In this document: positions 669 to 49,980 of the stretch, piece after piece
Layout of the letters: each line of letters opens with the position of its first letter
How positions within the stretch are numbered: the stretch's first letter is position 1
Origin: Minisyncoccota bacterium
GTDB taxonomy: Bacteria; Patescibacteriota; Minisyncoccia; Phycocordibacterales; UBA2100
Direction of reading: 5' to 3'
Assembly (NCBI GenBank): GCA_035500505.1
Contig: DATJXE010000003.1
Coordinates: forward strand, 201,697-265,696
Length of the DNA: 64,000 bases
Translations under genes and position numbers: made by a program
The notes under the pieces: generated by a model
Told to the model about the DNA's origin: nothing
Seen by the model: only the letters and a program-made list of their open reading frames with translations
Database searches by the model: none

Positions 669-2069
669 ATGGGAACAAAAACAAGTGAACGCGGCGACGT
701 AATGATACTGGTGCTTCTTCTTATTGCGATCGTCTCGCTCATCCTGCTCCCGTTCTTCAACGTGATCGCCAAGGAATTGAGCGTCGCAAAGACGCGCATC
801 GATCGCGAGGAAGCCTTGCAGATAGCGGAGGCGGGAGTTGATTACTACCAGTGGCATCTCGCGCATTATCCCGCCGACTACCAGGACGGTACCGGACACG
901 CGGGCCCCTACGTGCACGTTTATACCGACCTCGATACGCAGCAGACCTTGGGGTCTTACAGTTTGGCTATCACGCCGCCTTCAACTGGTTCCACTATCGT
1001 CACTATCCGATCCACGGGTTGGACGGCGGATAACCCGGCAGTGACGCGTACCGTAACCGCGAAATACGGCGTTCCGTCACTCGCACTGTTCTCGTTCTTG
1101 AGCAACGACATCATCTGGATCGGGAGCGATGAAACCGTGAGCGGTCAAATGCAGTCGAACAACGGTGTACGCTTCGATGGCACGACCAACGCGCCGGTCA
1201 TGTCGGCTAAATCCACCTACACATGCCCCTCAGGACAAGGTTCTCCATGCCCTACAACCGAAAACGGCGTCTGGGGCTCCGCTTCGCAAGCCATCAAGGC
1301 GTTCTGGCAGTATCCGGTCCCCGCGGTCGACTTTTCTTCTCTTACGTCCAACCTCGCGAGCCTCAAATCGACGGCCCAGGCGGAGACGGGCGGCACCTAT
1401 TACCTTTCGCCATCCAACGCGCAGGGTTATTCGCTTGTTTTCAATTCAGCTGGCACCGTGAGCGTCTATAAAGTAACGTCGCTCCAAAGTGATCCGACGG
1501 GGTGGGACGTAAATAACAACGCAATAAACACCAGTAGTGATTACAGGAACCGAACATTCTTATATACAGAACCTATTCCTGCGAACGGCATTTTTTATAT
1601 TGAGGACAAGGTATGGGTCGAGGGTACGGTGAAAGGACGCGTCATGGTCGCTGCGGCGGCGTTGCCGTACAACGCCTCGACTGCTCCCACGATCTACATT
1701 CCCAATAACGTTATCTACGCAGCCAAGGATGGAACCAATAGTCTCGGTCTTCTGGCTCAGCAGAACGTCATCGTTTCCTACGGGGCACCGCAGAATTTGG
1801 AGGTTGACGGTGCGCTCATCGCACAGAACGGCAGTGTCGAGTTCCTGTATTATCAGAACGACAGAGCCCTCAAGAATTCGATAACCGTCTATGGCTCCAT
1901 CATGACCTACGGCCAGTGGACCTGGACGTGGGTGGACGGGAACAATAACGACGTTTCCGGCTACGCGACGACCAACGATACGTACGACAGCAATCTTCTC
2001 TATGCTCCGCCGCCGTCATTCCCGCTCTCAACATCCGGATATAAGCAATTGAGCTGGTACTCTAACTGA
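669..2069 (+). CDS. PilX-like minor pilin / pilus assembly protein
   Basis: N-terminal TM helix followed by 'REEALQIAEAGVDYY', resembling the PilX N-terminal domain. It starts 2 nt after the pilin stop. Confidence 0.45.
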   Translation: MGTKTSERGDVMILVLLLIAIVSLILLPFFNVIAKELSVAKTRIDREEALQIAEAGVDYYQWHLAHYPADYQDGTGHAGPYVHVYTDLDTQQTLGSYSLAITPPSTGSTIVTIRSTGWTADNPAVTRTVTAKYGVPSLALFSFLSNDIIWIGSDETVSGQMQSNNGVRFDGTTNAPVMSAKSTYTCPSGQGSPCPTTENGVWGSASQAIKAFWQYPVPAVDFSSLTSNLASLKSTAQAETGGTYYLSPSNAQGYSLVFNSAGTVSVYKVTSLQSDPTGWDVNNNAINTSSDYRNRTFLYTEPIPANGIFYIEDKVWVEGTVKGRVMVAAAALPYNASTAPTIYIPNNVIYAAKDGTNSLGLLAQQNVIVSYGAPQNLEVDGALIAQNGSVEFLYYQNDRALKNSITVYGSIMTYGQWTWTWVDGNNNDVSGYATTNDTYDSNLLYAPPPSFPLSTSGYKQLSWYSN

Positions 2070-2071
2070 TT

Positions 2072-2371
2072 ATGAAGCTTGCGCAGTTTCCCAATGGTCA
2101 ATCCTTGCAGCCACTCCCGGCGCAGGTGCATGCGGACACGTCCGAAAGTTTGCAACGCAACGCGACCCCTGCTGATACGGTACATATTGAAAATGCCCCC
2201 GTGCCCGTGCAAGCTCCCGCTCCGACCATCGACGCCGGCGCAGCGCCGCAGGGATTCAACGTCACACAATCGGTCAACTCGTTCGGCTCGGCTGCGCCGT
2301 GGGCTCTCCTTGTACTTGCGCTTCTCGCCGTTGCCGGAGGAGTACGATTGTGGAAATCGTTCGTCGAGTAA
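2072..2371 (+). CDS. Hypothetical small protein with C-terminal TM anchor
   Basis: ORF starts 3 nt after the PilX stop. Low-complexity Pro/Ala-rich region then a hydrophobic C-terminus. Weak support. Confidence 0.3.
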   Translation: MKLAQFPNGQSLQPLPAQVHADTSESLQRNATPADTVHIENAPVPVQAPAPTIDAGAAPQGFNVTQSVNSFGSAAPWALLVLALLAVAGGVRLWKSFVE

Positions 2372-2379
2372 GCGGGTAC

Positions 2380-2458
2380 CGAATGCGGCACAGCAAATTC
2401 ATTGTCTGTGAGACTTTCGCACAACATTCTCGACAATGAATTTGCTGTGCCGCATTCG
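2380..2458. repeat. Perfect 27-bp inverted repeat (arms 2380-2406 and 2432-2458, 25-nt loop)
   Basis: cgaatgcggcacagcaaattcattgtc ... gacaatgaatttgctgtgccgcattcg, read directly. It starts 9 nt after a stop codon and lies upstream of the tpiA promoter. Confidence 0.85.
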
Positions 2459-2468
2459 AGACGTCCCA

Positions 2469-2487
2469 TGCTACAATTCTGCAAATG
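2469..2487 (+). promoter_or_regulatory. Extended -10 (TGCTACAAT) 7 nt upstream of tpiA ATG (leaderless-type promoter)
   Basis: TGCTACAAT-tctgcaa-ATG. The same architecture recurs at several other genes in the window. Confidence 0.45.
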
Positions 2488-3231
2488 AAAACGACTCTCG
2501 TCGCGAACTGGAAGATGAATCCTCAGTCGATGCGCGAGGCGAAGAAACTTTTTGAAGTGACGAGGAAGGCGGCCGAAGTCGCAAAAGATGTTTCGGTCAT
2601 CGTCGCGCCGCCATCCGTCTTTTTGCGGGAGCTCGCGACGGGATACAAAGGCAAAAAAGCTTCATTCGCCGCCCAGAACGCACATTTTGAGAAGGGCGGT
2701 GCGTACACCGGAGAAATTTCCATGCAGGAAGTGAAGGATTCGAGGGCTTCTGCCGTCATCATCGGCCACGCTGAGCGCCGAGCGATGGGAGAGACCAACG
2801 AAGACACGCGAGCGAAGGTGCTCGCCGCGCTCGCCCAGAAATTGCACCCCATTTTTTGTGTGGGCGAACACAAACGCTCCGGCTCCGGCGAGCACTTTCT
2901 GTTCGTCAAAGAACAGCTGCGCGCCGGGCTCTCCGATATTACGCCCGGGAACCTCTCGAAGATCCTCATCGCGTACGAGCCGGTGTGGGCGATCGGCGCC
3001 GACAAGGCGATGTCACCCAGACAGATGCACGAAATGGCCATATTCATCAGAAAATCCATCGTCGCGATGCATGGTGATAAGGGCATGAGAATCAAAATAC
3101 TCTACGGGGGCTCGATAGATGAGGGCAACGCGCGCGAAATGATCGTCGAAGGAGACGTGCAGGGACTCCTGGTCGGGCGGGCTTCAACCGATGCGGAAAA
3201 GTTCGCCGCACTCATCAAGTCGCTGGCATGA
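2485..3231 (+). CDS. tpiA: Triosephosphate isomerase
   Basis: 'VANWKMN' N-terminal TIM signature, 'AYEPVWAIG' active-site region, 248 aa. Confidence 0.9.
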   Translation: MKTTLVANWKMNPQSMREAKKLFEVTRKAAEVAKDVSVIVAPPSVFLRELATGYKGKKASFAAQNAHFEKGGAYTGEISMQEVKDSRASAVIIGHAERRAMGETNEDTRAKVLAALAQKLHPIFCVGEHKRSGSGEHFLFVKEQLRAGLSDITPGNLSKILIAYEPVWAIGADKAMSPRQMHEMAIFIRKSIVAMHGDKGMRIKILYGGSIDEGNAREMIVEGDVQGLLVGRASTDAEKFAALIKSLA

Positions 3232-6894: not shown

Positions 6895-7605
6895 TTAGCC
6901 GGTGTTCCGCCATAGCAGACAGCGGGCGAAGGAGATCAACATCGCGAACCCATCGCGTGCGCGGATTTTTTTCCCGTGCGCGAAATCCCGCGGCTCGTAC
7001 GACACCGGTACGTCGCGGATAGACCGTCCATTCAGGAGCAAAAGCGTCGTGACTTCCATATCGAAGTCGAACCCATTACCGCGAAGCGATAGTGACTTGA
7101 GAGTCTTGGCATTGAAAAGTTTATATCCCGTCCCGATATCCCGCAGATGCGCCGAGAAAACAACATTTACGAGTTCAGTTAATGCCCAATTGCCGAGAGC
7201 ATAGAACGAGTTCCGCTTATGCGGATCGTTCTTCCGCGTACCATACACGGCCGCGGCTTTCGTGCGTTCGATCTGTGAGAGCAGAGCAGGGATGTCCTTC
7301 GGGCGATACTCAAGGTCGGCATCCTGAATGACCACGTACTCGCCGCTTGCCGCCACAAGAGCGGTGCGTATCGCAGCGCCTTTGCCGCGACTGCGAGGGT
7401 GTTCCAGGTAATGAATTTGGGGAAAGAACGGTTCCAGTGCTCGTTTGGTCCCGTCTGTCGAGCCATCATTGACGAGGATGACCTCTTTTTCCCATCCCAG
7501 CAGGGGTTGCGCTAATACCTCACGCAAGATGGTCGCAATGGTGTCCTCTTCGTTGAACACGGGAATTATGACAGAGAGGAGCCGCATAATCAGGCGTCTT
7601 CGCAT
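6895..7605 (-). CDS. Family 2 glycosyltransferase (polyprenol-phosphate sugar transferase-like)
   Basis: 'VIIPVFNEE', 'LVNDGSTDGT', 'VVIQDADLEY' GT2 motifs. Convergent with recJ, with the stops 3 nt apart. Confidence 0.8.
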   Translation of the reverse strand: MRRRLIMRLLSVIIPVFNEEDTIATILREVLAQPLLGWEKEVILVNDGSTDGTKRALEPFFPQIHYLEHPRSRGKGAAIRTALVAASGEYVVIQDADLEYRPKDIPALLSQIERTKAAAVYGTRKNDPHKRNSFYALGNWALTELVNVVFSAHLRDIGTGYKLFNAKTLKSLSLRGNGFDFDMEVTTLLLLNGRSIRDVPVSYEPRDFAHGKKIRARDGFAMLISFARCLLWRNTG

Positions 7606-24478: not shown

Positions 24479-24847
24479 ATGACAGCGGAAAAGACGGCAA
24501 CCAAGAAACCTCGCACCTCGCGTGCGAAGAAAGAGGCTGGCCCCAGTCGGCTGCGCATTCGCGTGCGTGCCTACGAGCACGGCGTCTTGGACCGCTCCGT
24601 CAAGCAGATAATCGACACGGCGGCCCGCTACAACGCCAAGGTCGTTGGCCCTGTTCCGCTCCCCATCGATATAAAAAAGTACACCGTCAATCGCGCCGCA
24701 TTTATAGATAAAGACTCGCGCGAGCAATTTGAGATGCGCATCCACAAGCGCATGATAGACATTTTGAATCCCGAGGCGAAGGTCATCGAGGCCCTCACCA
24801 ACATTGATCTTCCTTCAGGCGTCAACATCGACGTGAAGATGATGTAA
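24479..24847 (+). CDS. rpsJ: 30S ribosomal protein S10
   Basis: 'RIRVRAYEHGVLDRSVKQIIDTAARYNAKVVGPVPLP...FEMRIHKRMIDI'. N-terminal Lys/Arg-rich extension. Isolated from the rest of the S10 operon. Confidence 0.85.
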   Translation: MTAEKTATKKPRTSRAKKEAGPSRLRIRVRAYEHGVLDRSVKQIIDTAARYNAKVVGPVPLPIDIKKYTVNRAAFIDKDSREQFEMRIHKRMIDILNPEAKVIEALTNIDLPSGVNIDVKMM

Positions 24848-24947
24848 GTAAACAGGCCAATCTTGACCAGATTGCCTATCATGGTATAATCCCCTTAGTC
24901 TTCGGAACGAGGTCGACCTCGTAGCCCCGGAGCGTTGGAGTAATCCG

Positions 24948-25190
24948 ATGGAAAAGATCGTTTTGGCCGTTTTTGCGGCCATGCTTGCCGTCGCGCCAGC
25001 GTCGGCGGCGTCGCGCTTTACGTCGGAATCGACGTCGGCGTATGCGGAGGCTTATCCGCCTCAGCCCCAGAGTCTCACCGGTAAGTGTAATCAGTGGGCG
25101 GGCGGGGTGTACAACCCCAGCATCCACAAATGGGTTATCACGAGCCGGTACCAGATGCTCCGGAAGTTGGCCTGTCCGTACTACAAATAG
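24948..25190 (+). CDS. Small secreted peptide (80-aa precursor, 2 Cys in mature part)
   Basis: Sec signal 'MEKIVLAVFAAMLAVAPASAAS'. TGGTATAAT promoter and a 16-nt palindromic 5'UTR hairpin (acgaggtcgacctcgt) lie upstream. Confidence 0.5.
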   Translation: MEKIVLAVFAAMLAVAPASAASRFTSESTSAYAEAYPPQPQSLTGKCNQWAGGVYNPSIHKWVITSRYQMLRKLACPYYK

Positions 25191-25268
25191 CGGCAGACCT
25201 GGAGACACTGCTGGAAGACGAATTTAGGCGGCCACATTGGCCGCCTTTTCATATGCGATGGTTCCCGA

Positions 25269-26657
25269 ATGGGATTCTTGTATAATCGTGCTGTGTCCGT
25301 CGCCCGTCGTTTTACGTTTGAATCATACTCGCTCGACACCGATCAGTCCGTAATCACGTTCACCTACCTGGTCGAATTTGAAGGCGGACACCAAGCGCGA
25401 TATGACGATCGGCTCGAATTTCCTGGCACCACGCGGACGATGTGGGAGCGTATTCCAAAGCCTGTTCTTTCGCAACTACTGCAAAGTCTGACCATACTGC
25501 ACGGCAGCGCGTATTGGAAACTCGATCATGCGGGAGAACTTGTCATCAGAGGATTTAGCCTGACTCGCGCGCAAGCAGATTTTTGGAATGAGGTGTATAC
25601 GAAGGGATTCGGGGAATTCTTTTATAGATCAAACATAGACCACAGAGGGCTGGTTTCCTTCCCATACCGCACTCGGTGGTGGTCAGGCCCGTTGTCAACA
25701 AGATTCAAACGTTCCCCACGCACCCTTCTCCTCAACGGCGGCGGCAAGGATACGGTCGTCTCCGCGGAAATGCTCAAAGAGGCCAGCATCGGCTTCGATC
25801 TGTTCACGTTGGCGAATGTTGGCGCAAAGAAGCGCGTCGCGGAGCACATCGGAACAAGGAACATCACGGTGAAACGCAGGGTCGATCCGGCAGCAGCGAG
25901 GACCGCACAGAGAATGAATGTCGCGCCCGGCGGACTTTTTACACTCACGCTCGGATTCCAGGCGCTCCTTGCGGCCACACTGTGGGACTATCGGTATGTT
26001 GTCTTCTCGAACGAGCAAAGCGCCGACATTGGCAACACCAAGTATCTCGGTCTTGACGTGAATCACCAGTGGACCAAGTCGAGGGAAGCGGAAGAACTCA
26101 CCCGGAAGTACGTGCGAACGTTCATCACGCCCGACGTGGAAGTTTTTTCGCTTTTGCGCCAATTCACCGAGATTGAAACGACGCGCCGCTTCAGCCTATA
26201 TTCGAAGTATTTCGATGCATTCTGCAGTTGCAACATGAATTCTCACGTGTCTCCTGACGAACAAGAAAACGCCCCGCGTTCCGGTTGGTGCGGCAAGTGC
26301 GCGAAGTGCATTTTCATATTTGCAGGTCTCACGGCGTTTTTACCGAAGGAGACGGTTGTCGGTATTTTCGGGCGCAACTTGTATCAAGATACGGCGCTGT
26401 TACCGGTGTTCAGGCAACTGCTCGGGCTGCAAGGCATCAAGCCATTCGAATGCGTGGGCACCTCCGAAGAAATGCTCGTCGCGATGCACCGAGCGGCGCA
26501 AACCGGTTTGTACGATACCGATCCCGCCATGGACATGTTCCTCAAAGAGATTCCACGGACAATACCATTCGATGATATAGAACACCGCGTCCTTTCCACT
26601 CACGGAGAGTCGACCGTTCCGACGGAGTTCAAGGCCATGATGGGCCTCGTCTCATGA
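25269..26657 (+). CDS. PP-loop-like ATP pyrophosphatase superfamily protein with C-terminal CxxC motif
   Basis: 'LLLNGGGKDTVVS' resembles an SGGxDS PP-loop. 'GWCGKCAKC' resembles the QueC-type zinc motif. The true start may be internal. Confidence 0.4.
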   Translation: MGFLYNRAVSVARRFTFESYSLDTDQSVITFTYLVEFEGGHQARYDDRLEFPGTTRTMWERIPKPVLSQLLQSLTILHGSAYWKLDHAGELVIRGFSLTRAQADFWNEVYTKGFGEFFYRSNIDHRGLVSFPYRTRWWSGPLSTRFKRSPRTLLLNGGGKDTVVSAEMLKEASIGFDLFTLANVGAKKRVAEHIGTRNITVKRRVDPAAARTAQRMNVAPGGLFTLTLGFQALLAATLWDYRYVVFSNEQSADIGNTKYLGLDVNHQWTKSREAEELTRKYVRTFITPDVEVFSLLRQFTEIETTRRFSLYSKYFDAFCSCNMNSHVSPDEQENAPRSGWCGKCAKCIFIFAGLTAFLPKETVVGIFGRNLYQDTALLPVFRQLLGLQGIKPFECVGTSEEMLVAMHRAAQTGLYDTDPAMDMFLKEIPRTIPFDDIEHRVLSTHGESTVPTEFKAMMGLVS

Positions 26658-26755
26658 GCCACACGAGCATTGCTTTTCTGTGTTTCGTGGCGCACAGTGG
26701 GTGCGGGCAGATTGCGGATGAACATGAACGCTGCCGCAGGTGGAGGATATAGAAA

Positions 26756-27211
26756 ATGGATCTTGAACTAAGGATCGAGGATCGCTCGTGGGACCGCGAA
26801 CGGCACTTGCGCCACATCAACGAAGGGGCATGGCTTCCCATGTTGGACGCGGATGGTAAGGTGCTCCCGGGTATTGTCGGAAAACGCGGCGTCGAAGGCG
26901 ACAAAAAAGACAGCACCAAGATCGGTGCCGATTTCGTGAAGATGAACCCGGGCACGAAATTTCCTCTACACGAGCATGAAGGCGAGCACGAGATCTTTTT
27001 CATTTCTGGTGAGGGGTTCGTGCATATCGATGGGGAAAATATCCCCGTCCGGGCGGGACACGTAATCCACATTCCGGGGGAATATCCCCATGGCGTGTGG
27101 GTTAGCGAAAATGTCAGCGAGCCGCTTATTTTCGTGGCCGCAGGGCATCCGCACAAACACGTCGATGCGGCCGATCGTATGCAACACCCACATGCACACC
27201 GGCACAGATGA
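26756..27211 (+). CDS. Cupin-domain protein with His-rich C-terminal tail
   Basis: 'PLHEHEGEHEIFFISGEG...HVIHIPGEYPHGV' cupin_2 motifs, and tail 'HPHKHVDAADRMQHPHAHRHR'. Confidence 0.6.
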   Translation: MDLELRIEDRSWDRERHLRHINEGAWLPMLDADGKVLPGIVGKRGVEGDKKDSTKIGADFVKMNPGTKFPLHEHEGEHEIFFISGEGFVHIDGENIPVRAGHVIHIPGEYPHGVWVSENVSEPLIFVAAGHPHKHVDAADRMQHPHAHRHR

Positions 27212-27268
27212 GTTCGAAAACACCACGCAAAAAGAAGGGCCGCCCTGCAAGGCGGTCCTTTATTTTTT

Positions 27269-27838
27269 ATGCAATACTTACGCCGTATGCTCATCTTGCT
27301 CGGCGGTTTTTTGGGGAGTGGACGAAAGATGCTCGCGAAACAGCTCGCTTACCGACAGAAGTTTTATCTCTATGACACGGAGGCAAAGAAGATGCACCAC
27401 CCCGAGTTCCAGTCGGACGGCAGCGTAAAAGAGGTGACCGAACCGCCAAAAAGCGAAGAACAACGGATGTTCCTGTACAAGCGCATCGTTGATGATTTCC
27501 CGCGTCTTTCAAAAATGTATCCGGACACCGTTATTGAGGAGGCATTTCACCGGATCGGACCGCGCGACTACTTCATTACCGAAGCGAAGAAGTTTTTCGA
27601 CCCGGTCGTGTTTGTATGGGTGGACTCTGACGAGGCGCATGTGGAGGAGCGGATGCGACGGATGGTAAAACTCGGGCTGGTAAAGAATCTTAGCGAGGCG
27701 ATGAACCGTCGTCGCAGAGCCGCCCGACATTTCAACCAGGACCCTTCGATGCGGGTGTTCAAGTGTGTCAAAGCCGATAGTGCTGAAGCAGATGCGTTGT
27801 GGACACTCGTTCGCGGAATCGCCGCAGGTAAAAGTTGA
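27269..27838 (+). CDS. P-loop NTPase-like (kinase-like) protein, atypical Walker A
   Basis: 'ILLGGFLGSGRKMLAKQLA' is a glycine-rich loop with RK in place of GK. Weak call. Confidence 0.3.
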   Translation: MQYLRRMLILLGGFLGSGRKMLAKQLAYRQKFYLYDTEAKKMHHPEFQSDGSVKEVTEPPKSEEQRMFLYKRIVDDFPRLSKMYPDTVIEEAFHRIGPRDYFITEAKKFFDPVVFVWVDSDEAHVEERMRRMVKLGLVKNLSEAMNRRRRAARHFNQDPSMRVFKCVKADSAEADALWTLVRGIAAGKS

Positions 27839-27952
27839 ACTATATAATTTTTTTATGACAGCTTTCAGGGGTGGGAGTGCGTGCGAAATTGACTTCCTGT
27901 GGGTAAAACGTACAATGTGAGTTCATCAACTGTCCTGTGAAGGAGAAGAGCG

Positions 27953-28162
27953 ATGAGAAAGCTCATGTTCTTTGCGGCTCTCGCGACGCTGGCGATGATC
28001 AATGTCTGTCAGGCCGCCGACGAGAAGAAAGTTACGACGGTCGACAAAGTCTGTGCGGACGACTGCTACAGTCACTGCGCGTCGCGCGTTGCGCAAAAGC
28101 TGACGGCAAACATTCCCGGCTGTCAGCGTTCGTGCAAGCGAACCCACAACTGCAGCAGTTAA
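27953..28162 (+). CDS. Small Cys-rich secreted peptide (69-aa precursor, 6 Cys in 48-aa mature part)
   Basis: Signal 'MRKLMFFAALATLAMINVCQA', SD AAGGAG. Spacing CxxxCxxxC...CxxxCxxxxxC. Followed by a hairpin + T-run. Confidence 0.5.
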   Translation: MRKLMFFAALATLAMINVCQAADEKKVTTVDKVCADDCYSHCASRVAQKLTANIPGCQRSCKRTHNCSS

Positions 28163-28185
28163 AGCACGAAGGGCGCGTCGGATGA

Positions 28186-28218
28186 AGGGGGTTGGGCGTT
28201 GCTCAGCCCCCATCTTTT
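28186..28218. terminator. Hairpin + T-run between convergent genes
   Basis: ggggg-ttgggcgttgctcag-ccccc-atctttt. Confidence 0.4.
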
Positions 28219-29329
28219 ATATGAAATCATTCTTCGGTTCGTAATACGTCGAGCGATCTAGTTCTTCGGAGAACTTAAATTGTTCGTCGATGAATGGCCA
28301 GACTTTCTGCTGGACCACAAGAAAATGAAGGGATCCGCGTTTCAGTTTATTGTCGCGATACTCCGCATCTTTGGTAAAGTCATAGATAACGTCTTTGCAC
28401 GGCCATTTGTAGGTGCGCCACTCATTTCTTATTTTTTTGTCGAGATTATTCATGCTCCAGAGTTGGAACTCGTCGGTGCGGTAGAACGGCAGGTACTTCG
28501 ATACAGCATATTCGGGCGTTATGCGTGGTGCCATGTATTTCGAAACGAACGTTAGCGTGCGCATGGAAACCGTTTGCCACTTCAACGCAAAATTTATCCA
28601 CCAGAAGAACAGGTAGTTCGTTTCTACGGGGACAGGAGCCGCGTCCTTAACACGCTCGAACATATCCATATAAAAATTCGTCACCTCGTCATCATGCACA
28701 AGGGAGTTGTAAAACGAGAAAATCGTGTCTCGGGAGTACGGCTGATGTAGTGGTGTCGTGCCCAGCATCGCAATGAACTTCGCAACGATGTCAGAGCCGA
28801 ACAGTTGGTCATTGTGTTCGCCGTTGACGATGACATGTTCGCCGCCGAGGAGGAGCGGAAAATGTCCAGACGATTCAGTCTGAAGTTTTCCGTGAATGTA
28901 TTCTTTGTAAAAGGTGGGATATTCGGCGATGGATTCTTCGCTCATGAGTACCGTAATATTCTTTTTCTGCTCAGGGGTAGCATTTTTTAGGAACGACACT
29001 AACACAAGGGTCGAATCTATGCCCCCCGACCAGAATGTGTAGAGCGGAACGCCGAGCTTATCTGCGTGTGCAAGCAATTCACGCGCCCGGTCGTTGCATA
29101 GTTCTTCGAACGTCTTCGTAGTTGATTTGAGTGTTGGAATGGGGAAAAGCGATTCCGTGCGTATGGGAAAACGCACAGTGCCAGTCCGGTCGTTCGGGGC
29201 GACTCCCTGGCCGTATATCTTGAAATAGTTGGAGAACCTCTCGATACCCGGCAGATCAAAATTCGCCGTGTTCGCAACAATGCGCGGCGCATAATGAAGG
29301 AGGCGCGGTGCGTCAGATGACCGCACCAT
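28217..29329 (-). CDS. Asparagine-synthetase-like PP-loop ATP pyrophosphatase
   Basis: 'LYTFWSGGIDSTLVLVSF' SGGxDS PP-loop. AT-rich gene, 370 aa. Confidence 0.55.
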   Translation of the reverse strand: MVRSSDAPRLLHYAPRIVANTANFDLPGIERFSNYFKIYGQGVAPNDRTGTVRFPIRTESLFPIPTLKSTTKTFEELCNDRARELLAHADKLGVPLYTFWSGGIDSTLVLVSFLKNATPEQKKNITVLMSEESIAEYPTFYKEYIHGKLQTESSGHFPLLLGGEHVIVNGEHNDQLFGSDIVAKFIAMLGTTPLHQPYSRDTIFSFYNSLVHDDEVTNFYMDMFERVKDAAPVPVETNYLFFWWINFALKWQTVSMRTLTFVSKYMAPRITPEYAVSKYLPFYRTDEFQLWSMNNLDKKIRNEWRTYKWPCKDVIYDFTKDAEYRDNKLKRGSLHFLVVQQKVWPFIDEQFKFSEELDRSTYYEPKNDFI

Positions 29330-30044
29330 AACAATCTTTGTAGAAACGCTGTAAAGTTGCCGTGAGTTCCTCTACCGTCTTTGCTTCACGGGCGTTGTTG
29401 AAGTAACGCAGCCGGAGCAATTCCGTTTTCGCGAGCTGGTCTTCATCCATTTGGGACTTGAAAAGGATGTCGTTGGCAGCCTGTTTCGGGTCGATGTTCG
29501 CGAAGTCGGCGTACTGAACGACGAAGGGAAATTCCAGCAGGCGTTGCTCGTCGTATCCTGAATCTTTGAAGCCCTTTGCTTGAGCGGCTTTCATTGCATA
29601 GACGGTTTCTTGGAAAGCGACGCCAGTTCCGACTCGATCGCGCGAGGCACTTATGGTGGTCATAATGCGTCCGACAACCTTTCCTTTTTCAGTTGTGAGG
29701 CTCGCCTGGCCACGCAACGCATCGGTTACCTGTTCGGACGGTGTGCGCACGAATAATCGCTCGTTCGTCCAAGTCCATTCGGGGTATGACTCGGAAGGGA
29801 CGCCTTCGAGAAAGAAAGAGTCGGGATAATTGGGATAGTTCACCTCCTGGACGTAAAACGAACCCGATGTGCACTCCTCTAAAAATACAAGGGTTGAGGG
29901 GTACGGGGAGATGGTAAGGAGTCGCTTTTCGCCATCGAGCAACGCACCATATCTGCGAGTAAATCTCGGTGCACCCGTATCCGGGGTATGAGAAAAAGGC
30001 CAGCGCATATGTACCCATTTTACTGGGGCGTTCTGGTCATGCAA
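29313..30044 (-). CDS. Hypothetical protein (operon with ycaO)
   Basis: 243 aa with no motif. Overlaps its neighbours by 17-25 nt. Confidence 0.35.
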   Translation of the reverse strand: MHDQNAPVKWVHMRWPFSHTPDTGAPRFTRRYGALLDGEKRLLTISPYPSTLVFLEECTSGSFYVQEVNYPNYPDSFFLEGVPSESYPEWTWTNERLFVRTPSEQVTDALRGQASLTTEKGKVVGRIMTTISASRDRVGTGVAFQETVYAMKAAQAKGFKDSGYDEQRLLEFPFVVQYADFANIDPKQAANDILFKSQMDEDQLAKTELLRLRYFNNAREAKTVEELTATLQRFYKDCYGAVI

Positions 30045-31639
30045 TAGAGTTCATTGGCAACGGTCGTCATGAAAAAACGCTTGGTCGCTGGGTTATATGC
30101 AATTTTATTGACGATACGTTCGGTCGCTTGAAAGACTGATTGCCCCGCGCCAGTCTCAGGATCTATCGCGTACAGTCTCCCATCGTTAGAGCCAATGTAA
30201 ATGGCATCTTCCACCAAAAGTGGAGAGGCAAAAATTCGGCCGGCAGTGCGGAACTCCCATTTTTTCGATCCGGTATCAAGGTCGAGGGCGTAGACGCCTT
30301 TGTCCAGCGAGGAGAAATACGCAGTCTCGCCAATAACGAGCGGTGTCGAGTAACTCCCCGCGCTCGGCTCGTACGCGAATATCGGCGTACCATCGGTATC
30401 AAGGGCGTAAAACAGTCCGCCGAGTGAACCGAAGAGAATAAGCTGCCGTTTCGGGTCGTACGCAAAGGATGATTTTACGCTACCTTGCACACGATACTGC
30501 CAAAGGGGAGCACCCGAATCGGCTCGATATGCGTACACGATGTCATCGTTGCTTCCGACGACGACCATGTTCTTTTCTCGTATGTACAGAGGAGATCCGT
30601 GCGTGCACTCGCCGCTATGGTGCTGCCATACAACCTCACCGGTATCCATTCTCAAGGCGACCATGCCGCCTTGTTTCCGGAAAAGCCCGAACTCAAGGCC
30701 GATGAAGAGAAGACCGAGGTCGGGCGCAAGCGACGGTGAAGAGCCGACCCAATCCGCGTCTTCGTACTTCCATTTGAGAGTGCCCGATCGTGCTTCGAGC
30801 GCATAGACGTTACCATCGTATGCGCCGAAATAGACGGTGTCCCGGTGGAGAGCGGGAGAGGAAAAGATTCCTTTACCAGCCGGATGTTTGCCCGTTTCGA
30901 ATGACCAGGCGACCGAACCATCATTCTGGTTCAGCGCATAAAAAGTTCCCGCATCGCTACCAAAATAGACACGCTCGGCATCCAGAACGGGGGCGGACTT
31001 TTGTACCACGTAGTTAAAGGCGGGGTTGGGAGCGGCAAAATGCCATAGCTGTGTGAGCGCCGCTCTCTTCGCCTTCGGCGTTGTAAGTGAGAGACCGAAA
31101 TCTTCGAGTGTGAAAAGCTTATGCATTGTGCGTTTTTTGTCGAGCAGCGGCGCGTACGCAGTGTCATCCCTGAACGCGATAAGCGCGAACATGTCAGACA
31201 CGGCCAGCCCCTCGCGTTCCAGGACCTGTATCTGCGTGGTGAAGGTATTCCCGGAATTGACGAGATCGTCCACCAAAATAACGGGATCGCGTGTCGGGGC
31301 ACCTTCGAGGCGTCTCATGAGTCCTTGTCGTTTACGCGACTTTCGAATAAAAAGCCCGTTCACTGGTGTTCCACGTTCCATGCTTTTCATCACGATAGCT
31401 GCTACGAGGGCAATGCCAGCGCTTTCCATAGCGCAAACTTGGAACGGATACCTTTTTGCGCATGCATCCCAGAAGAATTCCGCGTACGCATCCAGCCAAC
31501 GAGGCTGCAGCAAGAGCGCGCGGAAGTCGAAGAGCCACGGCGCATACGAAGCCTCATCGACCATGACGATGGGCCGTTCTGGAGAGAAATGTACGATCAC
31601 GTCTTTCGCTATCGCTTCGCGAAGGGTTTTTTTGTCCAT
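30020..31639 (-). CDS. Phosphoribosyltransferase-domain / PQQ-like beta-propeller fusion protein
   Basis: N-terminal 'DPVILVDDLVNSGNTF' PRTase motif. C-terminal 6-8 repeats 'VYFGSDAGTFYALNQNDGSVAWSF', 'VYALEARSGTLKWKY', etc. (PQQ/BamB-like). Confidence 0.6.
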   Translation of the reverse strand: MDKKTLREAIAKDVIVHFSPERPIVMVDEASYAPWLFDFRALLLQPRWLDAYAEFFWDACAKRYPFQVCAMESAGIALVAAIVMKSMERGTPVNGLFIRKSRKRQGLMRRLEGAPTRDPVILVDDLVNSGNTFTTQIQVLEREGLAVSDMFALIAFRDDTAYAPLLDKKRTMHKLFTLEDFGLSLTTPKAKRAALTQLWHFAAPNPAFNYVVQKSAPVLDAERVYFGSDAGTFYALNQNDGSVAWSFETGKHPAGKGIFSSPALHRDTVYFGAYDGNVYALEARSGTLKWKYEDADWVGSSPSLAPDLGLLFIGLEFGLFRKQGGMVALRMDTGEVVWQHHSGECTHGSPLYIREKNMVVVGSNDDIVYAYRADSGAPLWQYRVQGSVKSSFAYDPKRQLILFGSLGGLFYALDTDGTPIFAYEPSAGSYSTPLVIGETAYFSSLDKGVYALDLDTGSKKWEFRTAGRIFASPLLVEDAIYIGSNDGRLYAIDPETGAGQSVFQATERIVNKIAYNPATKRFFMTTVANELYCMTRTPQ

Positions 31640-31644
31640 GTGAT

Positions 31645-32388
31645 TCAATCGTGTACCTCTTGTAGGGAGCTCCTGGTGTCTTCTCCTCGGCACAGGATGA
31701 TCGAGAGGACTGGCTGCTCGAGCCGTTCGTCTATGTCGAGCAGAGATAGAGCAACTTCGTCAGAAAACCCGATGACAGGGCGCGCACCAATCTCGCACGC
31801 AGAAGCCGCGAGCAGGATATTTTCCGATAAATGTCCCGCTTCAAGTAGCGCCAGCATATAGGCGAAATCGCCGTACTTTGCGGACGAACGTTCCCACACA
31901 CTCGTGAAGAGGACGATTGAGGAAGCGGCGGGCGCCTCTGGGGCGCGTACCAGATCACTCATCGAAAAGTCAGTTGGAACGTCCCAGAGCCGCTCGAGCG
32001 CATGTTCGGTCGGATGATAATGGAACACCCCCGAGCCCGCCCCTTCGATCCCTCTGGAAACGATGTACGTTTCGATCGGAAAAAGCGCGCCGCCGGAAGG
32101 ATATCGACGCCGCACCGAACCATCGTGTCGCCGCAGCCCCGAAAACACTGCTCCCAGATCGTCAGTGGAAAGCGGTCCTTCGTTGCGCAGTTCGAGAAAG
32201 GAGCGTCTGTGGCGAAGCGCCTGAGAAAGCGGAGTTTGTAGCTCCGTTCGCGGCAAGACGAACTGCTGCATGCGAGGGTATTCTTTATGCAAACCCCTCG
32301 GGACGTCCTTCGGGTCGTGCGTTGCCCCGCGTCTAGTAAGGCGAGCGCGCCGCAAGTCGCCGTGGAGATCTGAAAGAAAAAAAGTCAT
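31645..32388 (-). CDS. SagB-type (TOMM/McbC-like) nitroreductase-fold dehydrogenase
   Basis: 'LRHRRSFLEL', 'YPSGGALFPIETYI', 'SIVLFTSVWERSSAKYGDFAYMLALLEAGHLSENILLAASACEIGARPVIGF'. Confidence 0.7.
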   Translation of the reverse strand: MTFFLSDLHGDLRRARLTRRGATHDPKDVPRGLHKEYPRMQQFVLPRTELQTPLSQALRHRRSFLELRNEGPLSTDDLGAVFSGLRRHDGSVRRRYPSGGALFPIETYIVSRGIEGAGSGVFHYHPTEHALERLWDVPTDFSMSDLVRAPEAPAASSIVLFTSVWERSSAKYGDFAYMLALLEAGHLSENILLAASACEIGARPVIGFSDEVALSLLDIDERLEQPVLSIILCRGEDTRSSLQEVHD

Positions 32389-32389
32389 A

Positions 32390-33823
32390 TCAACAGAATG
32401 GGTGCGGTCGTTCGACGAATGGTTGTTCTAAAGGTTCGTAGCCGAACAGGCGGGGGACAAGTTGAAGCCGTTCTCCCCCGAGATGTCGCATCCGCTCGGC
32501 AAGGTGTGTTGGATGCAAATCAGGCATAAGGATCATTTCGATGTGCCACGGGGTCGGATTCGCCTTAGAGGAGGTCAAGGGTACCGAAACACACTCATAA
32601 CCTTTTTCTCGGCACCAATTCTCGATCCGTTCCAACTGCATCTGCGGTGTGTCGTCTTCCCAGGCCGCCCGAACGGGGTCTTTCTCTTCCCCAGAGACTA
32701 GGAACTCAAGATGGCGTGCATGTTCGGGGTCTTGCCAGTAATGCACGCGACCTCGGTGGCCGATATCGTCGACCGGTTTTGATGGGTCATAAAACTCGTC
32801 GGGATCGGCCTTGCGCGTAAAGCGTCGCGCACGCAATGCTTCCAAGATTGCTTTTTCGGAAGCATCCGCAAGTGAGCGGTGTGCCTTAAGCCCGAAGGCG
32901 AAACGAGGACCGACCGGACTAGGGTCCTCAAGGATCGCACAAACGGCATGTGTCGGTGCATCAGTAAGCATTGTGATGATGTGTACGCGTAGGCCGTAGC
33001 GTTCGCAGCGAGAAATGATAGCGTCGAGTGTCTTTGATCGTGTTCGTAGCGAAGAGGGGTGTATGCGCGGCAGTGAAAGCTGATTAAACCACATGATCAT
33101 ATACGATTCTCGTTCGATACACTCAAGCGCCCCGGCGAGCCGCGCGCCGATCCTTGTCGGCCATGTCGCAAGTCCTGTGGTATGTTGCATTCGTATCAGC
33201 GGTTCCTGAGGAGATACTTTAAATGGACCCCACGCCGCACTAACAGTTTGCGCCGGCACGTAGATTTTTTTACCGCTTACGAGTGATGTCCCTTCAATCC
33301 ATAGATACGATGCTTCGGGAGGGAGGCGAAACTGTGACGATTGCAGGCGTTGTGCCTCTGAAAAAGAAACGAATTGATGTGGAGCGATGATAGGGAAGCG
33401 AGCTCGCATTTCGTCAATCGTGCCGCGTCGCGGACGGACGAAGTAATCGCGCTGTGTCCACCAAATGTAACGTTCAAGGCCTTCTGCGAGCGCTGCAAAG
33501 AGAGCAGACGTATCGTTGTCGACCGACGAACCGCCGGCGAAGTTTTCCGCGGAGTCTCTCACTCGACAGATCCAGTGTCGCACTCCTGGTTCATCTGGCA
33601 ATCCTTCCGTAGGACCGTACCAGCTCACGACGCCCCGGTCGATGAGCTTCGTCGCGACAGACAATGGTTCTGCTAGGTCAGCGCGACCGAACGGCACGCG
33701 CCTTTTATCGTACAGCACGGTGACGCCGAGCCTTCGCTCAATGAATTCGAGGAAAGAAACTATGGCTCGTCGCCCCCGATTTTCTTGAGCGACGTCATCA
33801 AACCGCACTCCGTCGATGAGCAT
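32390..33823 (-). CDS. ycaO: YcaO-domain ATP-dependent cyclodehydratase
   Basis: 'AGGSSVDNDTSALFAALAEGLERY' and 'TTGLATWPTRIGARLAGALECIERESYMIMW' YcaO signatures. Pro-rich C-terminus 'ERPHPFC'. Confidence 0.8.
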   Translation of the reverse strand: MLIDGVRFDDVAQENRGRRAIVSFLEFIERRLGVTVLYDKRRVPFGRADLAEPLSVATKLIDRGVVSWYGPTEGLPDEPGVRHWICRVRDSAENFAGGSSVDNDTSALFAALAEGLERYIWWTQRDYFVRPRRGTIDEMRARFPIIAPHQFVSFSEAQRLQSSQFRLPPEASYLWIEGTSLVSGKKIYVPAQTVSAAWGPFKVSPQEPLIRMQHTTGLATWPTRIGARLAGALECIERESYMIMWFNQLSLPRIHPSSLRTRSKTLDAIISRCERYGLRVHIITMLTDAPTHAVCAILEDPSPVGPRFAFGLKAHRSLADASEKAILEALRARRFTRKADPDEFYDPSKPVDDIGHRGRVHYWQDPEHARHLEFLVSGEEKDPVRAAWEDDTPQMQLERIENWCREKGYECVSVPLTSSKANPTPWHIEMILMPDLHPTHLAERMRHLGGERLQLVPRLFGYEPLEQPFVERPHPFC

Positions 33824-33928
33824 TCCGCGATTCTAGCACAAGGGCCATTCCACAGCCTGCCGCTTGGGTTACTGCAAAGTATCCACACGCCATGCGACTC
33901 AGCGGCAAGTACCTGGTACTATGGGTGC

Positions 33929-34234
33929 ATGCGTTCTGCCAATAAGAATACTCGGGGTCTCTTGCGGAAGATCTTTCTCTCCGCGACGATCGTATTCGGT
34001 TTTCTATCTATCATATTTTCAAGGGATTTTGGTGGAGCATCACGCCTGCTTTTCAGGGAACGGGACAACGGGATAGCGCATGCCGACGCGCCGAGTAGCG
34101 GCGGGGGCGGAGACGGGGGTGGAGGCGGCTCTGGCGATGCTCCCAGTTGCAACTACGGTGACGCCGGCAGTGGGTGCTCAGATTGCGGAGCCGATAGTGC
34201 GAGCGCGGACGCAGGCGGGGGCGATGCAGGGTAA
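33929..34234 (+). CDS. Candidate RiPP precursor: hydrophobic leader + Gly/Ser/Cys/Asp-rich C-terminal core
   Basis: Divergent from ycaO in a ~430-nt intergenic gap. Core 'DAPSSGGGGDGGGGGSGDAPSCNYGDAGSGCSDCGADSASADAGGGDAG'. Could instead be a chance ORF in G-rich DNA. Confidence 0.35.
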   Translation: MRSANKNTRGLLRKIFLSATIVFGFLSIIFSRDFGGASRLLFRERDNGIAHADAPSSGGGGDGGGGGSGDAPSCNYGDAGSGCSDCGADSASADAGGGDAG

Positions 34235-34254
34235 ACAACCCAGTAAATTTTTGT

Positions 34255-35400
34255 ATGAGCAAGACAACGGGAATAGCGATTGTAGGAATGGTGGTGGCGG
34301 TTCTGCTCGCTATAATTGCCGTCGTATTCCTGTATGAACAAAATTTTGTTGCACAGCCTTCTCACCCTTCAAACCAGGACCTCTGGTATGAAACCCTGCA
34401 GGACAATCCAGCGTTCGCACTTGCGCTCCAAGAAGAAGGACAAGGCGACTACGGCGCAGGCGCCGAGAGTGTAAAGCAGGCGCTTGCTTCAGCGGCAAAG
34501 TCCGACCAGATGCAGTTGCTTGCGGTGTATCTCGGGGTGGCGTATGGATACGCCGGGGACTACCAAAACGCCGTCACTCAGCTGGAACAAGTGGTTGCGA
34601 CGAACTCGGATACTCCGGATACACGTGCTTTTGCGGCCGAGCAACTAGCTCTTGCGTACTCGCGCAATCCGGCCGCGAACTCCGTGTTAGCAATGTTACA
34701 GCAACCCGCATATAAGAGTCTGTACGTAGCGACCAGCACAAATCTAACGGCGCGAGGACTCTTTCTGTATGCGACCGCGATCAAGCCGTTGCCACTTTCC
34801 GAATACAACATTGCGAACACGTTCGCTACCTCCATTTTCAACCAAAGCCTGGTTGGCACCACTTCTCCTGCCGGCAAGGCACAATTCGCATCCCTTGAAC
34901 AGAAGTTGAAGAACCGACTGCTTGCCGGGGATGCGGCTCTTGCCACGCTCGACCAGGTTCCTTATCCGAGTTATGAACCCGAAGCTCAGGCGTTGAAGGC
35001 TCTCGTTCTCGGAAAGCTTCAAATCATGGGCGACACAAGTTTGGGTGATGCTAGTCAGGCATACACAACTGCACTCGCAAGCTATGCGCTCCAGGGTGCC
35101 CAAGATGGACAAGTTCGCATATGGTATGCATCGTTCCTAGCGGCTGCTTACGGGACGTCGCGCCTCGCGGACATAGAATCTGTTCTCGCTCCGATTTATC
35201 AAGACCCGACGCACCGCGGCGTAACCGTGGTTTCCACCTTGCAATCGTATGTGGGTGCGCTCAATTCAAGCTCGAAACGAAGTCTTGCAACGCTCGCAGC
35301 CATCGACCCTCAGTTCAGGACATTTCTACAATCCTTAGGGTGGACGGCTAAGGATTTTTCAGCGACAATCGTTCAGACTTCGACAACGACGACAAAATAG
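34255..35400 (+). CDS. Hypothetical membrane-anchored Ala-rich protein
   Basis: N-terminal TM 'IAIVGMVVAVLLAIIAVVFLY', then a 350-aa Ala/Leu/Gln-rich extracytoplasmic domain. Confidence 0.45.
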   Translation: MSKTTGIAIVGMVVAVLLAIIAVVFLYEQNFVAQPSHPSNQDLWYETLQDNPAFALALQEEGQGDYGAGAESVKQALASAAKSDQMQLLAVYLGVAYGYAGDYQNAVTQLEQVVATNSDTPDTRAFAAEQLALAYSRNPAANSVLAMLQQPAYKSLYVATSTNLTARGLFLYATAIKPLPLSEYNIANTFATSIFNQSLVGTTSPAGKAQFASLEQKLKNRLLAGDAALATLDQVPYPSYEPEAQALKALVLGKLQIMGDTSLGDASQAYTTALASYALQGAQDGQVRIWYASFLAAAYGTSRLADIESVLAPIYQDPTHRGVTVVSTLQSYVGALNSSSKRSLATLAAIDPQFRTFLQSLGWTAKDFSATIVQTSTTTTK

Positions 35401-35402
35401 GC

Positions 35403-36209: not shown

Positions 36210-36220
36210 CGTAAAACCCT

Positions 36221-37933: not shown

Positions 37934-37982
37934 GCGTGGGGAAAAACGTCCGCGCCGCCTGGCTCGATGCTATAGTTGTTGC

Positions 37983-38429: not shown

Positions 38430-38434
38430 AGCGT

Positions 38435-38562
38435 GCGGCGAAGCAGCATGAGTTTTTGAATATCTCGGCTTTGCCACCGTTCTCTTTCTCTGTGCCGGAC
38501 TCTGCCGCAAGAAAACCATTTTGGAAAAATGTGGTAAACAAAAACTCATGCTGCTTCGCCGC
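38435..38562. repeat. Perfect 24-bp inverted repeat (arms 38435-38458, 38539-38562; 80-nt spacer)
   Basis: gcggcgaagcagcatgagtttttg / caaaaactcatgctgcttcgccgc. It starts 6 nt after a stop codon, upstream of the rplC operon. Confidence 0.85.
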
Positions 38563-38639
38563 ATAGCGGCATAGTTGCACGCCTTCTTTTTTCGTATATA
38601 GTGCTTCCACCCAAGTCCGTATATGGACCAATGGTGAGC

Positions 38640-48705: not shown

Positions 48706-49980
48706 ATGTGGGAAGCCTTCGTTCAAAAACTCCGGGTCGTCGTCGAAGACGCGACGTTGCGCAACCGCATCCTGTTCGTCCTGGGTGCGCTCATCGTTTT
48801 CCGCCTGCTTGCCGCGATCCCCACTCCCGGCGTCAACGCGGTTGAGCTACAGAATTTTCTCGCCAACAACCAATTCTTCGGCCTTTTGAACGTCTTTTCC
48901 GGCGGCGGCTTCTCGACGCTCTCCATCGTGATGCTCGGCGTCGGCCCCTTCATCACCGCCTCCATCGTCATGCAGCTCATGACGGTCCTCATTCCGAAGT
49001 TGAAGGAAATGTACCAAGAGGAGGGCGACGCGGGCCGCATGCGCTTCACGCAGTACTCGCGCTACCTCACCGTGCCGCTCGCGCTCATCCAGGCGTTCGG
49101 ATTCGTTCTGCTATTGCAGCAGAACGGCATTGTGCCGGCGCTTACCCCGTTGCAGCTTCTCACCAACATGCTGGTCGTTTCTGCGGGTTCGATACTCCTC
49201 ATGTGGATCGGCGAACTCATTTCCGAATTCGGCGTGGGGAACGGCGTCTCGCTCATCATCTTCGCGGGCATCGTCGCGCGTATCCCGCGCGGACTCTCCC
49301 AACTCGCGTTCTCCTTTGAAGCCTCGCAGATCCCCGGTATCGTCGGGCTTGTCGCTGCGGCGCTCGTCATTACTGCGGGAGTTGTCTTTATCACCGAGGC
49401 CGAACGACCGATCCCTGTCACCTACGCCCGCCGCGTGCGCGGCATGAAGGTGATGGGCGGCGTGTCCACGTACCTGCCGCTTCGGGTGAACCAAGCCGGC
49501 GTCATCCCGATAGTCTTCGCACTCTCCATATTGCTGTTCCCGCAGATGATAGCGACGTTCCTTACGCACTCTTCTATCGGCTGGCTCCAATCCGGCGCGC
49601 AGAACGTCGTGAACGCGCTCGCCAATCAATGGGTCTACGGCTCGCTCTACTTCCTGCTCGTCGTGATTTTCACCTACTTCTACACCGCCATCACGTTCGA
49701 ACCGCATCAGGTGGCAAAGAACCTGCAGAAAAACGGCGCGTTCATCCCCGGGGTGCGCCCGGGCGGCACGACCGCAGAATACCTCGGCAACATCATCACC
49801 CGCATCACGCTGGTCGGCGCGCTTTTCTTGGGCGTACTCGCGGTCTTGCCGCTCATCGTTGAAGGTGTGACCGGCGTCACCGCGATCACCATCGGCGGTA
49901 CCGCGCTCCTCATCGTCGTCTCCGTCGTTCTCGATGTGGTCAAGAAAATTGACGCGCAGACCTCGATACGCGAATATTGA
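48706..49980 (+). CDS. secY: Preprotein translocase subunit SecY
   Basis: 10 TM, 'GVNAVELQNF', 'PFITASIVMQL', 424 aa. Confidence 0.9.
   Translation: MWEAFVQKLRVVVEDATLRNRILFVLGALIVFRLLAAIPTPGVNAVELQNFLANNQFFGLLNVFSGGGFSTLSIVMLGVGPFITASIVMQLMTVLIPKLKEMYQEEGDAGRMRFTQYSRYLTVPLALIQAFGFVLLLQQNGIVPALTPLQLLTNMLVVSAGSILLMWIGELISEFGVGNGVSLIIFAGIVARIPRGLSQLAFSFEASQIPGIVGLVAAALVITAGVVFITEAERPIPVTYARRVRGMKVMGGVSTYLPLRVNQAGVIPIVFALSILLFPQMIATFLTHSSIGWLQSGAQNVVNALANQWVYGSLYFLLVVIFTYFYTAITFEPHQVAKNLQKNGAFIPGVRPGGTTAEYLGNIITRITLVGALFLGVLAVLPLIVEGVTGVTAITIGGTALLIVVSVVLDVVKKIDAQTSIREY

Follow-up and report, generated by a model that had tools for sequence, protein, structure and literature searches.

A rare six-cysteine mini-protein of Patescibacteria that may be exported as a disulfide-stapled helical hairpin

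The 64-kilobase (kb) stretch of contig DATJXE010000003.1 analysed here (GenBank assembly GCA_035500505.1, a Minisyncoccota bacterium; the whole stretch is called the window) contains a small gene, the mini-gene, for a cysteine-rich precursor of 69 amino acids (aa). On balance and with moderate confidence, its product is read as a Sec-exported helical hairpin held by three disulfides, which would serve as an extracellular binding or effector peptide and would not be a substrate of the YcaO-SagB enzymes encoded nearby. The same degree of confidence, given to the explanation as a whole, covers the view that the mini-gene is an accessory gene with a patchy distribution in a few lineages of Paceibacterota (Patescibacteria, also known as CPR). 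The source on record for the protein is a metagenome-assembled genome of Candidatus Paceibacterota, in which it is encoded on a contig of 366.7 kb.

Judged from its sequence, the mini-gene is a genuine gene of a very small, extremely rare family, because it combines conservation across genomes with a full set of expression signals. The preliminary description of the locus had proposed a search for peptides with the same Cys spacing. An exhaustive phmmer search of 1.84 billion proteins, each representing a cluster in a set of about 15 billion, returned one true full-length homologue, P0002 (67 aa, E-value 1.2e-11, 52% identity). P0002 carries its own signal peptide (…SSPTLA/AEKKK, the slash marking the cleavage point) and all six cysteines at identical spacing, and it also retains DKVCxDDCYSHC, RV, PGCQRxC, R, H, and the final Cys. 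A third member, L033, was found via its gene neighbourhood and is truncated where its contig, k141_379073 of ERZ27294416, ends. This locus carries the closest homologue of the kinase-like gene that lies upstream of the mini-gene in the window, in the order cupin, terminator, kinase-like gene, promoter, GGAGG, ATG. The promoter (TTGACG-17-TATAAT, 11 of 12 consensus matches) is at the equivalent position and is the sole promoter-like match in the locus, and the GGAGG stands at a distance from the ATG similar to that of the Shine-Dalgarno (SD) sequence in the window. The L033 peptide reads MRKIFLVAMMAAAVASPAFA/SDQKQAQSKSDPVCHDAC… and reaches ...DPVCHDAC at the contig end; an exact look-up of this truncated peptide in the protein collection gave no entry.

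In the window, the open reading frame (ORF) is exactly as quoted in the preliminary description, and the promoter with its TACAAT box, the strong SD, and the terminator hairpin described there are all present. The promoter, TTGACT-16-TACAAT, matches the consensus at 10 of 12 positions and, by consensus match, is the top sigma-70-like candidate in a 2.5-kb region. The terminator-like hairpin has 11 pairs, 8 of them G-C, followed by the T-rich tail ATCTTTTATA. It begins 25 nucleotides (nt) past the stop codon of the mini-gene. The next gene, for a 370-aa protein, is convergent, and its stop codon (28217-28219) is overlapped by the T-tract, so that the whole cassette fills the 378 nt between two convergent stops. 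That the mini-gene is monocistronic is plausible but unproven: no terminator was found between it and the upstream kinase-like gene, and read-through from the latter is therefore possible. The gene had also been described as AT-richer than its surroundings, which is incorrect. Its GC content, 0.562, is close to the mean of the window (0.558), stands at the 49th percentile among 210-nt windows, and exceeds that of both flanking genes (0.528 and 0.486); the AT-rich part is only the 114-nt upstream spacer (GC 0.43). No convincing flanking repeats that would mark a mobile insertion were found around the mini-gene.

It could be argued that the mini-gene is a chance, non-functional ORF between two convergent genes. 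It is short, has no match in Pfam, NCBIfam, or PHROGs, and is overlapped by an antisense 95-aa ORF. However, P0002 keeps the cysteines and the signal peptide at the E-value given above, the orthologue at the corresponding place in L033 is preceded by a promoter and an SD of its own, and the expression signals in the window are complete, with a GC content at third codon positions of 0.73, within the range of 0.54-0.82 of the comparison genes sampled. The conservation across genomes effectively refutes the chance-ORF explanation, which we consider exceedingly improbable.

The N-terminus of the precursor has the classic layout of a Sec signal peptide, as had been proposed: MRK, a 15-residue hydrophobic stretch, and C-Q-A, followed by A-D, with cleavage predicted after Ala21. 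The signal peptides of the family were identified by eye from the sequence. Those of the two relatives end in TLA/AE (P0002) and AFA/SD (L033), so that A-x-A-type sites occur in all three members. Lipid modification was considered as an alternative and rejected: a conserved lipobox is missing, the window protein has a poor one (I-N-V-C), and the signal peptides of P0002 and L033 are without Cys. The predicted 48-residue mature peptide, also as described earlier, has six cysteines, at positions 13, 17, 21, 36, 40, and 46, that is, C-X3-C-X3-C-X14-C-X3-C-X5-C. The mature peptides are cationic, with isoelectric points (pI) of 8.6 in the window and 9.2 in P0002, whose predicted mature form has 44 residues.

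Structure prediction, the other check that had been proposed, points to the same fold in both full-length peptides. AlphaFold2 models the mature mini-protein as helix 8-26, loop 27-32, and helix 33-43 (mean predicted local distance difference test score, pLDDT, 79.2), and with P0002 as the target it gives the same helix-loop-helix topology (pLDDT 78.4). On a helical wheel, helix 1 carries Cys13, Cys17, and Cys21 inside an arc of 80 degrees, and Cys36 and Cys40 share one face of helix 2. The residue numbers add up as they should in an antiparallel register (21+36 = 17+40 = 57), and Cys46 in the C-terminal tail is able to reach Cys13. Because the cysteines line facing helix sides in this register, the models suggest three ladder disulfides, Cys21-Cys36, Cys17-Cys40, and Cys13-Cys46. 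The general idea of a secreted disulfide peptide fits the signal peptides conserved in three members, the invariant six-Cys pattern, and the predicted helix-loop-helix with facing cysteines. A defensin-like fold, which had been suggested as well, does not fit: defensins are built on beta-sheets or a cysteine-stabilized alpha/beta fold, and the models have helices only. Comparison with PDB and BFVD by structure and by sequence returned nothing specific. Such methods cannot tell apart a shape as generic as that of a hairpin of two helices.

Based on these features, the mini-protein may act as follows. The product of a free-standing gene would be exported via Sec, and signal peptidase would remove 21 residues. 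The resulting cationic peptide would fold outside the cytoplasm into an antiparallel helix-loop-helix, in which the three predicted disulfides would staple the helices into a compact, protease-resistant hairpin. Such a stable, polar, cationic extracellular peptide (5.2 kDa) could then bind something outside the producer cell. Most likely it would be an antimicrobial or a host- or competitor-directed effector that acts on the envelope or the enzymes of another cell in the manner of plant alpha-hairpinins. The options for its target may be ranked with such an effector first, a protease inhibitor or partner second, and a metal-thiolate peptide third; the effector is placed first because of the analogy with alpha-hairpinins and with Sec-dependent bacteriocins.

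Several observations weigh against the proposed stapled hairpin and its effector role. The surface of the mini-protein is highly polar and not amphipathic, which makes simple membrane lysis unlikely. No Dsb, VKOR, or thioredoxin-like oxidase was found within the window. The AlphaFold2 models were built on a two-sequence alignment, and the three family members known give too little comparative context to infer a target. The peptide, earlier called bacteriocin-like, may indeed be so, but the immunity gene or transporter expected for a bacteriocin was not found beside the mini-gene; none is co-transcribed, as the terminator directly follows the mini-gene. The window does encode an Fe/Mn superoxide dismutase, which hints at oxygen exposure.

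Instead of forming disulfides, the six thiolates, together with the conserved His and Asp-Asp residues next to them, might bind Cu(I), Zn(II), or a small metal-thiolate cluster in the space between the helices, so that the mini-protein would be an extracytoplasmic peptide for metal sequestration or delivery. Cysteines at positions i, i+4, and i+8 on a helix face line the cores of copper-storage proteins (Csp), and the helix Cys spacing of the mini-protein resembles this arrangement. His20 and His44 (in S-H-C and H-x-C) and Asp15/Asp16, all next to Cys, are invariant in the two full-length members, and the lack of a disulfide oxidoreductase in the window also agrees with metal binding. On the other hand, a Sec-exported helical hairpin with Cys pairs opposite one another has the standard geometry of disulfide staples, as in alpha-hairpinins and glycocins. 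The His is replaced in the probably related module of L004 described below (ERQTD where the mini-protein has KRTHN), and there are no metal-handling genes near the mini-gene. We therefore regard metal binding as unlikely.

The L004 module bears on another possibility, namely that the hairpin is a secreted inhibitor or partner of a trypsin-like serine protease. When the DNA of metagenome and genome collections was scanned for the motif, 23 matches were obtained, and one of these, L004, continues the pattern. L004 encodes a lipoprotein in which a Trypsin_2 domain is followed by CGDDCYTHCRRKVLGNWVPNPGCESVCVAERQTDC, a module 46% identical over 28 aa to the mini-protein, and it would be the "Rosetta-stone" version of the proposed pair. 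The module has the spacing C-X3-C-X3-C-X13-C-X3-C-X7-C and opens the Cys/Ala/Gly-rich C-terminal 120 residues of the lipoprotein, which is found on 12 contigs in public data, the longest of 287 kb. At the right distance beyond the searched motif, PGC-X3-C would turn up by chance about 5e-4 times in the 23 pattern matches. The PGC criterion was, however, picked after the match from this motif-directed scan had been seen, and for this reason the module is called only a probable relative, on sequence grounds. Some alpha-hairpinins, for example, VhTI and BWI-2c, are trypsin inhibitors, and the loops of both free peptides hold Lys or Arg (K28; K24/R27). Yet the L004 loop is without a basic residue, the window yielded no trypsin-like protease, and the homology of the module with the mini-protein is probable rather than proven. 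A protease-directed role is thus given the same low probability as metal binding.

A broader proposal that joins these lines is that the mini-protein is the founding member of a bacterial three-disulfide family that resembles alpha-hairpinins, arose independently of the plant peptides, and is secreted by episymbiotic Patescibacteria to manipulate or kill host or competitor cells or to block proteases, with a further version as a module on secreted proteases (L004). We offer this only tentatively, as something that may well turn out otherwise.

Other searches underline how rare the family is. The mini-protein has no match in Pfam, NCBIfam, or PHROGs, and a word-indexed search of 5.8 billion proteins returned only the mini-protein itself. 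Scans with the back-translated two-sequence alignment gave no relatives in metagenome, genome, and viral contigs, collections that apparently do not hold the contigs of the window and of P0002. A tblastn search of phage and plasmid collections gave no match to the mini-protein, and a check of all six frames in the 277 kb of DNA compared showed just two instances of the six-Cys pattern. The P0002 contig, from JGI 3300067032, is 14.6 kb long and has 20 genes, whose sole Pfam match is a phage-type integrase. Its synteny with the window was considered, as gene lengths of 258, 131, and 189 aa match three window ORFs, and could not be confirmed. Among the matches listed (120 of 144), none to the family of the 258-aa protein lies on this 14,625-bp contig, the search with the kinase-like protein returned no protein from it, and the contigs of the best 258-aa homologues show no synteny with the mini-gene locus.

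The kinase-like gene is the sole recurring neighbour of the mini-gene, in the order cupin, kinase-like gene, mini-gene in both the window and L033. Among nine kinase-like loci, the mini-gene lies downstream in these two and is missing in six (L001, L002, L003, L032, L034, and the contig of P0011); the contig of P0009 is too short to score. An ORF downstream of the kinase-like gene in L034 was considered as a family member and rejected as unrelated. The kinase-like family itself comprises 9 sequences with a deviant Walker A motif, GGFLGSGRK. Its sole similarity to solved structures is a weak one to shikimate kinases (E-value 0.004), and the gene is usually convergent with the gene for the 370-aa PP-loop protein. 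L002 encodes another small secreted Cys peptide near its kinase-like homologue (2040-2258, plus strand; 72 aa, 4 Cys, a singleton cluster). This peptide, MRKLFMVLALVALTATSVTITNA/EPAKRG…CPYGFNAC…CHDRCNQ, has no detectable kinship to the mini-protein beyond the signal peptide.

Table 1. Positions of the mini-gene, its signals, and the genes discussed with it (window coordinates; the last line refers to the L004 locus).
Feature	Position	Strand	Remarks
Mini-gene coding sequence	27953..28162	+	69-aa precursor, stop codon included; NCBI HTR18614.1 / VMH91_01375, annotated hypothetical protein
Sigma-70-like promoter	27889..27916	+	-35 TTGACT 27889-27894, 16-nt spacer, -10 TACAAT 27911-27916
Shine-Dalgarno AAGGAG	27940..27945	+	7 nt ahead of the mini-gene ATG
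Intrinsic-terminator-like hairpin and T-rich tail	28187..28221	+	Hairpin itself 28187-28211
Sec-type signal peptide MRKLMFFAALATLAMINVCQA	27953..28015	+	Predicted signal peptidase I cleavage after Ala21
Mature peptide (predicted), 48 aa	28016..28159	+	5.23 kDa reduced, pI 8.6
Kinase-like gene (P-loop "predicted kinase"-like)	27269..27838	+	Upstream context; functional link to the mini-gene not implied
370-aa protein	28217..29329	-	Block gene; SGGIDS PP-loop motif; without Pfam match
243-aa protein	29313..30044	-	Block gene; without Pfam match
Phosphoribosyltransferase fused to PQQ-like beta-propeller (PRT-PQQ)	30020..31693	-	Block gene
SagB-type dehydrogenase	31645..32388	-	Block gene
YcaO/SagD	32390..33823	-	Block gene
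SecY	48706..49980		Same window
L004 342-aa lipoprotein	1710..2738	-	Trypsin_2 domain (E-value 2e-08), then CGDDCYTHCRRKVLGNWVPNPGCESVCVAERQTDC

The mini-gene lies 55 nt from the last gene of a five-gene minus-strand block (Table 1) that includes YcaO and SagB. The mini-protein had earlier been proposed as an alternative substrate of these enzymes, and one could imagine that its cysteines are cyclodehydrated and oxidised to thiazoles before export. Its closeness to the block and its Cys-rich composition are in line with this idea. However, the mini-gene has a promoter and a terminator of its own and is read from the other strand, and the part of the block adjacent to it (the PP-loop, 243-aa, and PRT-PQQ genes) is conserved in L001, L003, and L032, where the mini-gene is absent at the junction. 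The kinase-like gene of L001 and L003 converges directly with homologues of the 370-aa gene (71% and 55% identity, respectively) and the 243-aa gene; the gap measures 112 nt in L001 and 25 nt in L003, and tblastn finds no mini-gene. There is no room for a mini-gene in L032, where the kinase-like gene overlaps with a convergent one that encodes a protein clearly resembling the 370-aa protein of the window; on the contig of P0011 the kinase-like gene is likewise overlapped by a convergent partial gene that leaves no room (gene calls only). Conversely, on the contig of the full-length homologue P0002 no gene corresponds in size to YcaO, SagB, or the PP-loop gene, and Pfam detects no YcaO. The Sec signal seen in three members, in place of the leader of a peptide that is made on ribosomes and then modified post-translationally (RiPP), would be an unusual route for a RiPP modified in the cytoplasm, and the Cys spacing has helical periodicity with partner cysteines conserved on the second helix. 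Because the adjacent part of the block occurs without the mini-gene, the mini-gene occurs without the block, and its N-terminus is a predicted Sec signal, a role as substrate of the YcaO-SagB cluster is not supported, and we consider it very unlikely.

As a precursor for the YcaO-SagB enzymes, a 101-aa ORF (33929-34234, plus strand, within ORF 33785..34234) that is divergent from YcaO is a more conventional candidate. It has an N-terminal hydrophobic helix and a C-terminal tail rich in Gly, Ser, Cys, and Asp (…GGGGDGGGGGSGDAPSCNYGDAGSGCSDCGADSASADAGGGDAG), and it is without a Pfam match. The five-gene block is within a 13.8-kb stretch (24848-38679) that parts S10 (24479..24847) from L3 (38680..39285). 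Sequence searches found no relatives of solved structure for the 370-aa and 243-aa proteins.

Other contents of the window are consistent with Patescibacteria, beginning with the str/S10 ribosomal region (S12, S7, EF-G, EF-Tu, S10, L3, L4, L23, L2, SecY). Genes for a 935-aa TraG/VirD4-like coupling protein (54265-57072, plus strand), a type IV pilin-like protein with an N_methyl motif (47-667, plus strand), and ComEC (8890-10371, plus strand) represent DNA-uptake and transfer machinery typical of this group. A 258-aa secreted protein (20139-20915, plus strand) with four tandem Cys-containing repeats (…YGSDWYCNTGYKTQYDSSFNKIGC…) and a weak EGF_MSP1_1 match lies in the window's lowest-GC stretch (0.449). 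It has at least 144 relatives, and those that are named are all from Parcubacteria, Kaiserbacteria, Nomurabacteria, or Patescibacteria. A 221-aa ORF with 20 Cys (26629-27294, minus strand) is antisense to the cupin gene (26756..27211, Cupin_2 E-value 1e-11). This ORF, which might be taken for a Cys-rich protein, is almost certainly spurious. The gene for tRNA-Phe(GAA) at 14476-14573 (minus strand) is 98 nt long according to ARAGORN, about 20 nt over the standard length, and may carry an intron or insertion. No Rfam family reaches the gathering threshold anywhere in the window.

Cystine-stapled helical hairpins are prized as hyper-stable scaffolds and as antimicrobial or protease-inhibiting peptides, and they are known mainly from plants and venoms. 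A bacterial version exported via Sec would make the uncultivated Patescibacteria a new source of such hairpins and X3/X3...X3/X5 a new Cys framework. As the mature peptide has only 48 residues and is accessible by chemical synthesis, it could be one of the few tractable handles on the dealings of tiny episymbionts with other cells. It would matter more if it truly is an antimicrobial or host-directed effector of an episymbiont. When the YcaO cluster beside its gene is mined, the peptide should be left out of the RiPP precursors.

Several known groups of peptides share individual features with the mini-protein. The twin-CX3C/CHCH proteins (small Tim) and the scorpion CS-alpha/alpha toxins (kappa-hefutoxin) combine CX3C...CX3C motifs, antiparallel helices, and nested disulfides. 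They are, however, eukaryotic, have two disulfides rather than three, depend on Mia40 or venom-gland biogenesis, and have no sequence relationship to the mini-protein. The precursors of TOMM/YcaO peptides are similarly short, Cys-rich, and encoded beside a YcaO-SagB pair, but they have a leader, whereas the mini-protein has a Sec signal, comes from a convergently transcribed gene, and is not conserved together with the cluster. In the glycocins sublancin and glycocin F the Cys spacing is X6, in contrast to X3 in the mini-protein. Glycocins are bacterial, antimicrobial peptides whose leader is cut by a C39 protease. They consist of two helices with nested disulfides, three of them in thermoglycocin and orniglycocin, and they need a glycosyltransferase and a peptidase-containing ABC transporter (PCAT) (PMC12457901). 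None of this machinery is near the mini-gene: Pfam scans of all ORFs between 18 and 38 kb detected neither a glycosyltransferase nor such a transporter, and the only GT2 gene (6895..7605) is about 20 kb away.

Sactipeptides such as thuricin CD and thurincin H are hairpins in which the regularly spaced cysteines of the first half are cross-linked in a nested manner to the second half (PMC8172795). These cross-links are thioethers from Cys to the alpha-carbon of non-Cys acceptors made by radical-SAM/SPASM enzymes, whereas the second half of the mini-protein carries matching Cys; no ORF within about 10 kb of the mini-gene has a Radical_SAM match. Sec-dependent class II bacteriocins of the enterocin P type are ribosomal, unmodified, small, and cationic, with a Sec signal and one or more disulfides (PMC6700250). 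The mini-protein likewise combines a Sec signal with a small cationic peptide (5.2 kDa, pI 8.6; P0002 pI 9.2). It differs in that class II bacteriocins have an adjacent immunity gene and, in class IIa, a YGNGV motif, whereas the mini-gene is directly followed by a terminator, has no immunity candidate, and shares no sequence similarity with them.

The plant alpha-hairpinins, for example, EcAMP1, MBP-1, and the six-Cys peptide of Nigella sativa (PDB 2NB2), are small and cationic and form a helix-loop-helix with facing, X3-spaced Cys pairs, as predicted for the mini-protein. They follow a four-Cys rule, C-X3-C-X4-20-C-X3-C, and six-Cys variants exist (PMC11591084). The four-Cys motif is present in the mini-protein as Cys17-X3-Cys21-X14-Cys36-X3-Cys40, and the predicted models of both full-length peptides have the helix-loop-helix of this family. 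From the six-Cys motif, C-X3-C-X3-C-X4-20-C-X3-C-X3-C, the mini-protein departs only in the last spacing: where the published motif has X3, both full-length members have X5, and the L004 module has X7. Alpha-hairpinins are cut from vicilin-type or multi-module precursors, whereas the mini-protein is bacterial and has a simple Sec signal, and no sequence similarity to them was detected in Pfam or PDB sequence searches. The resemblance is most simply explained by convergence and not by membership. Going by the predicted models, alpha-hairpinins are nonetheless the closest match to the mini-protein in shape and in the logic of its cysteines.

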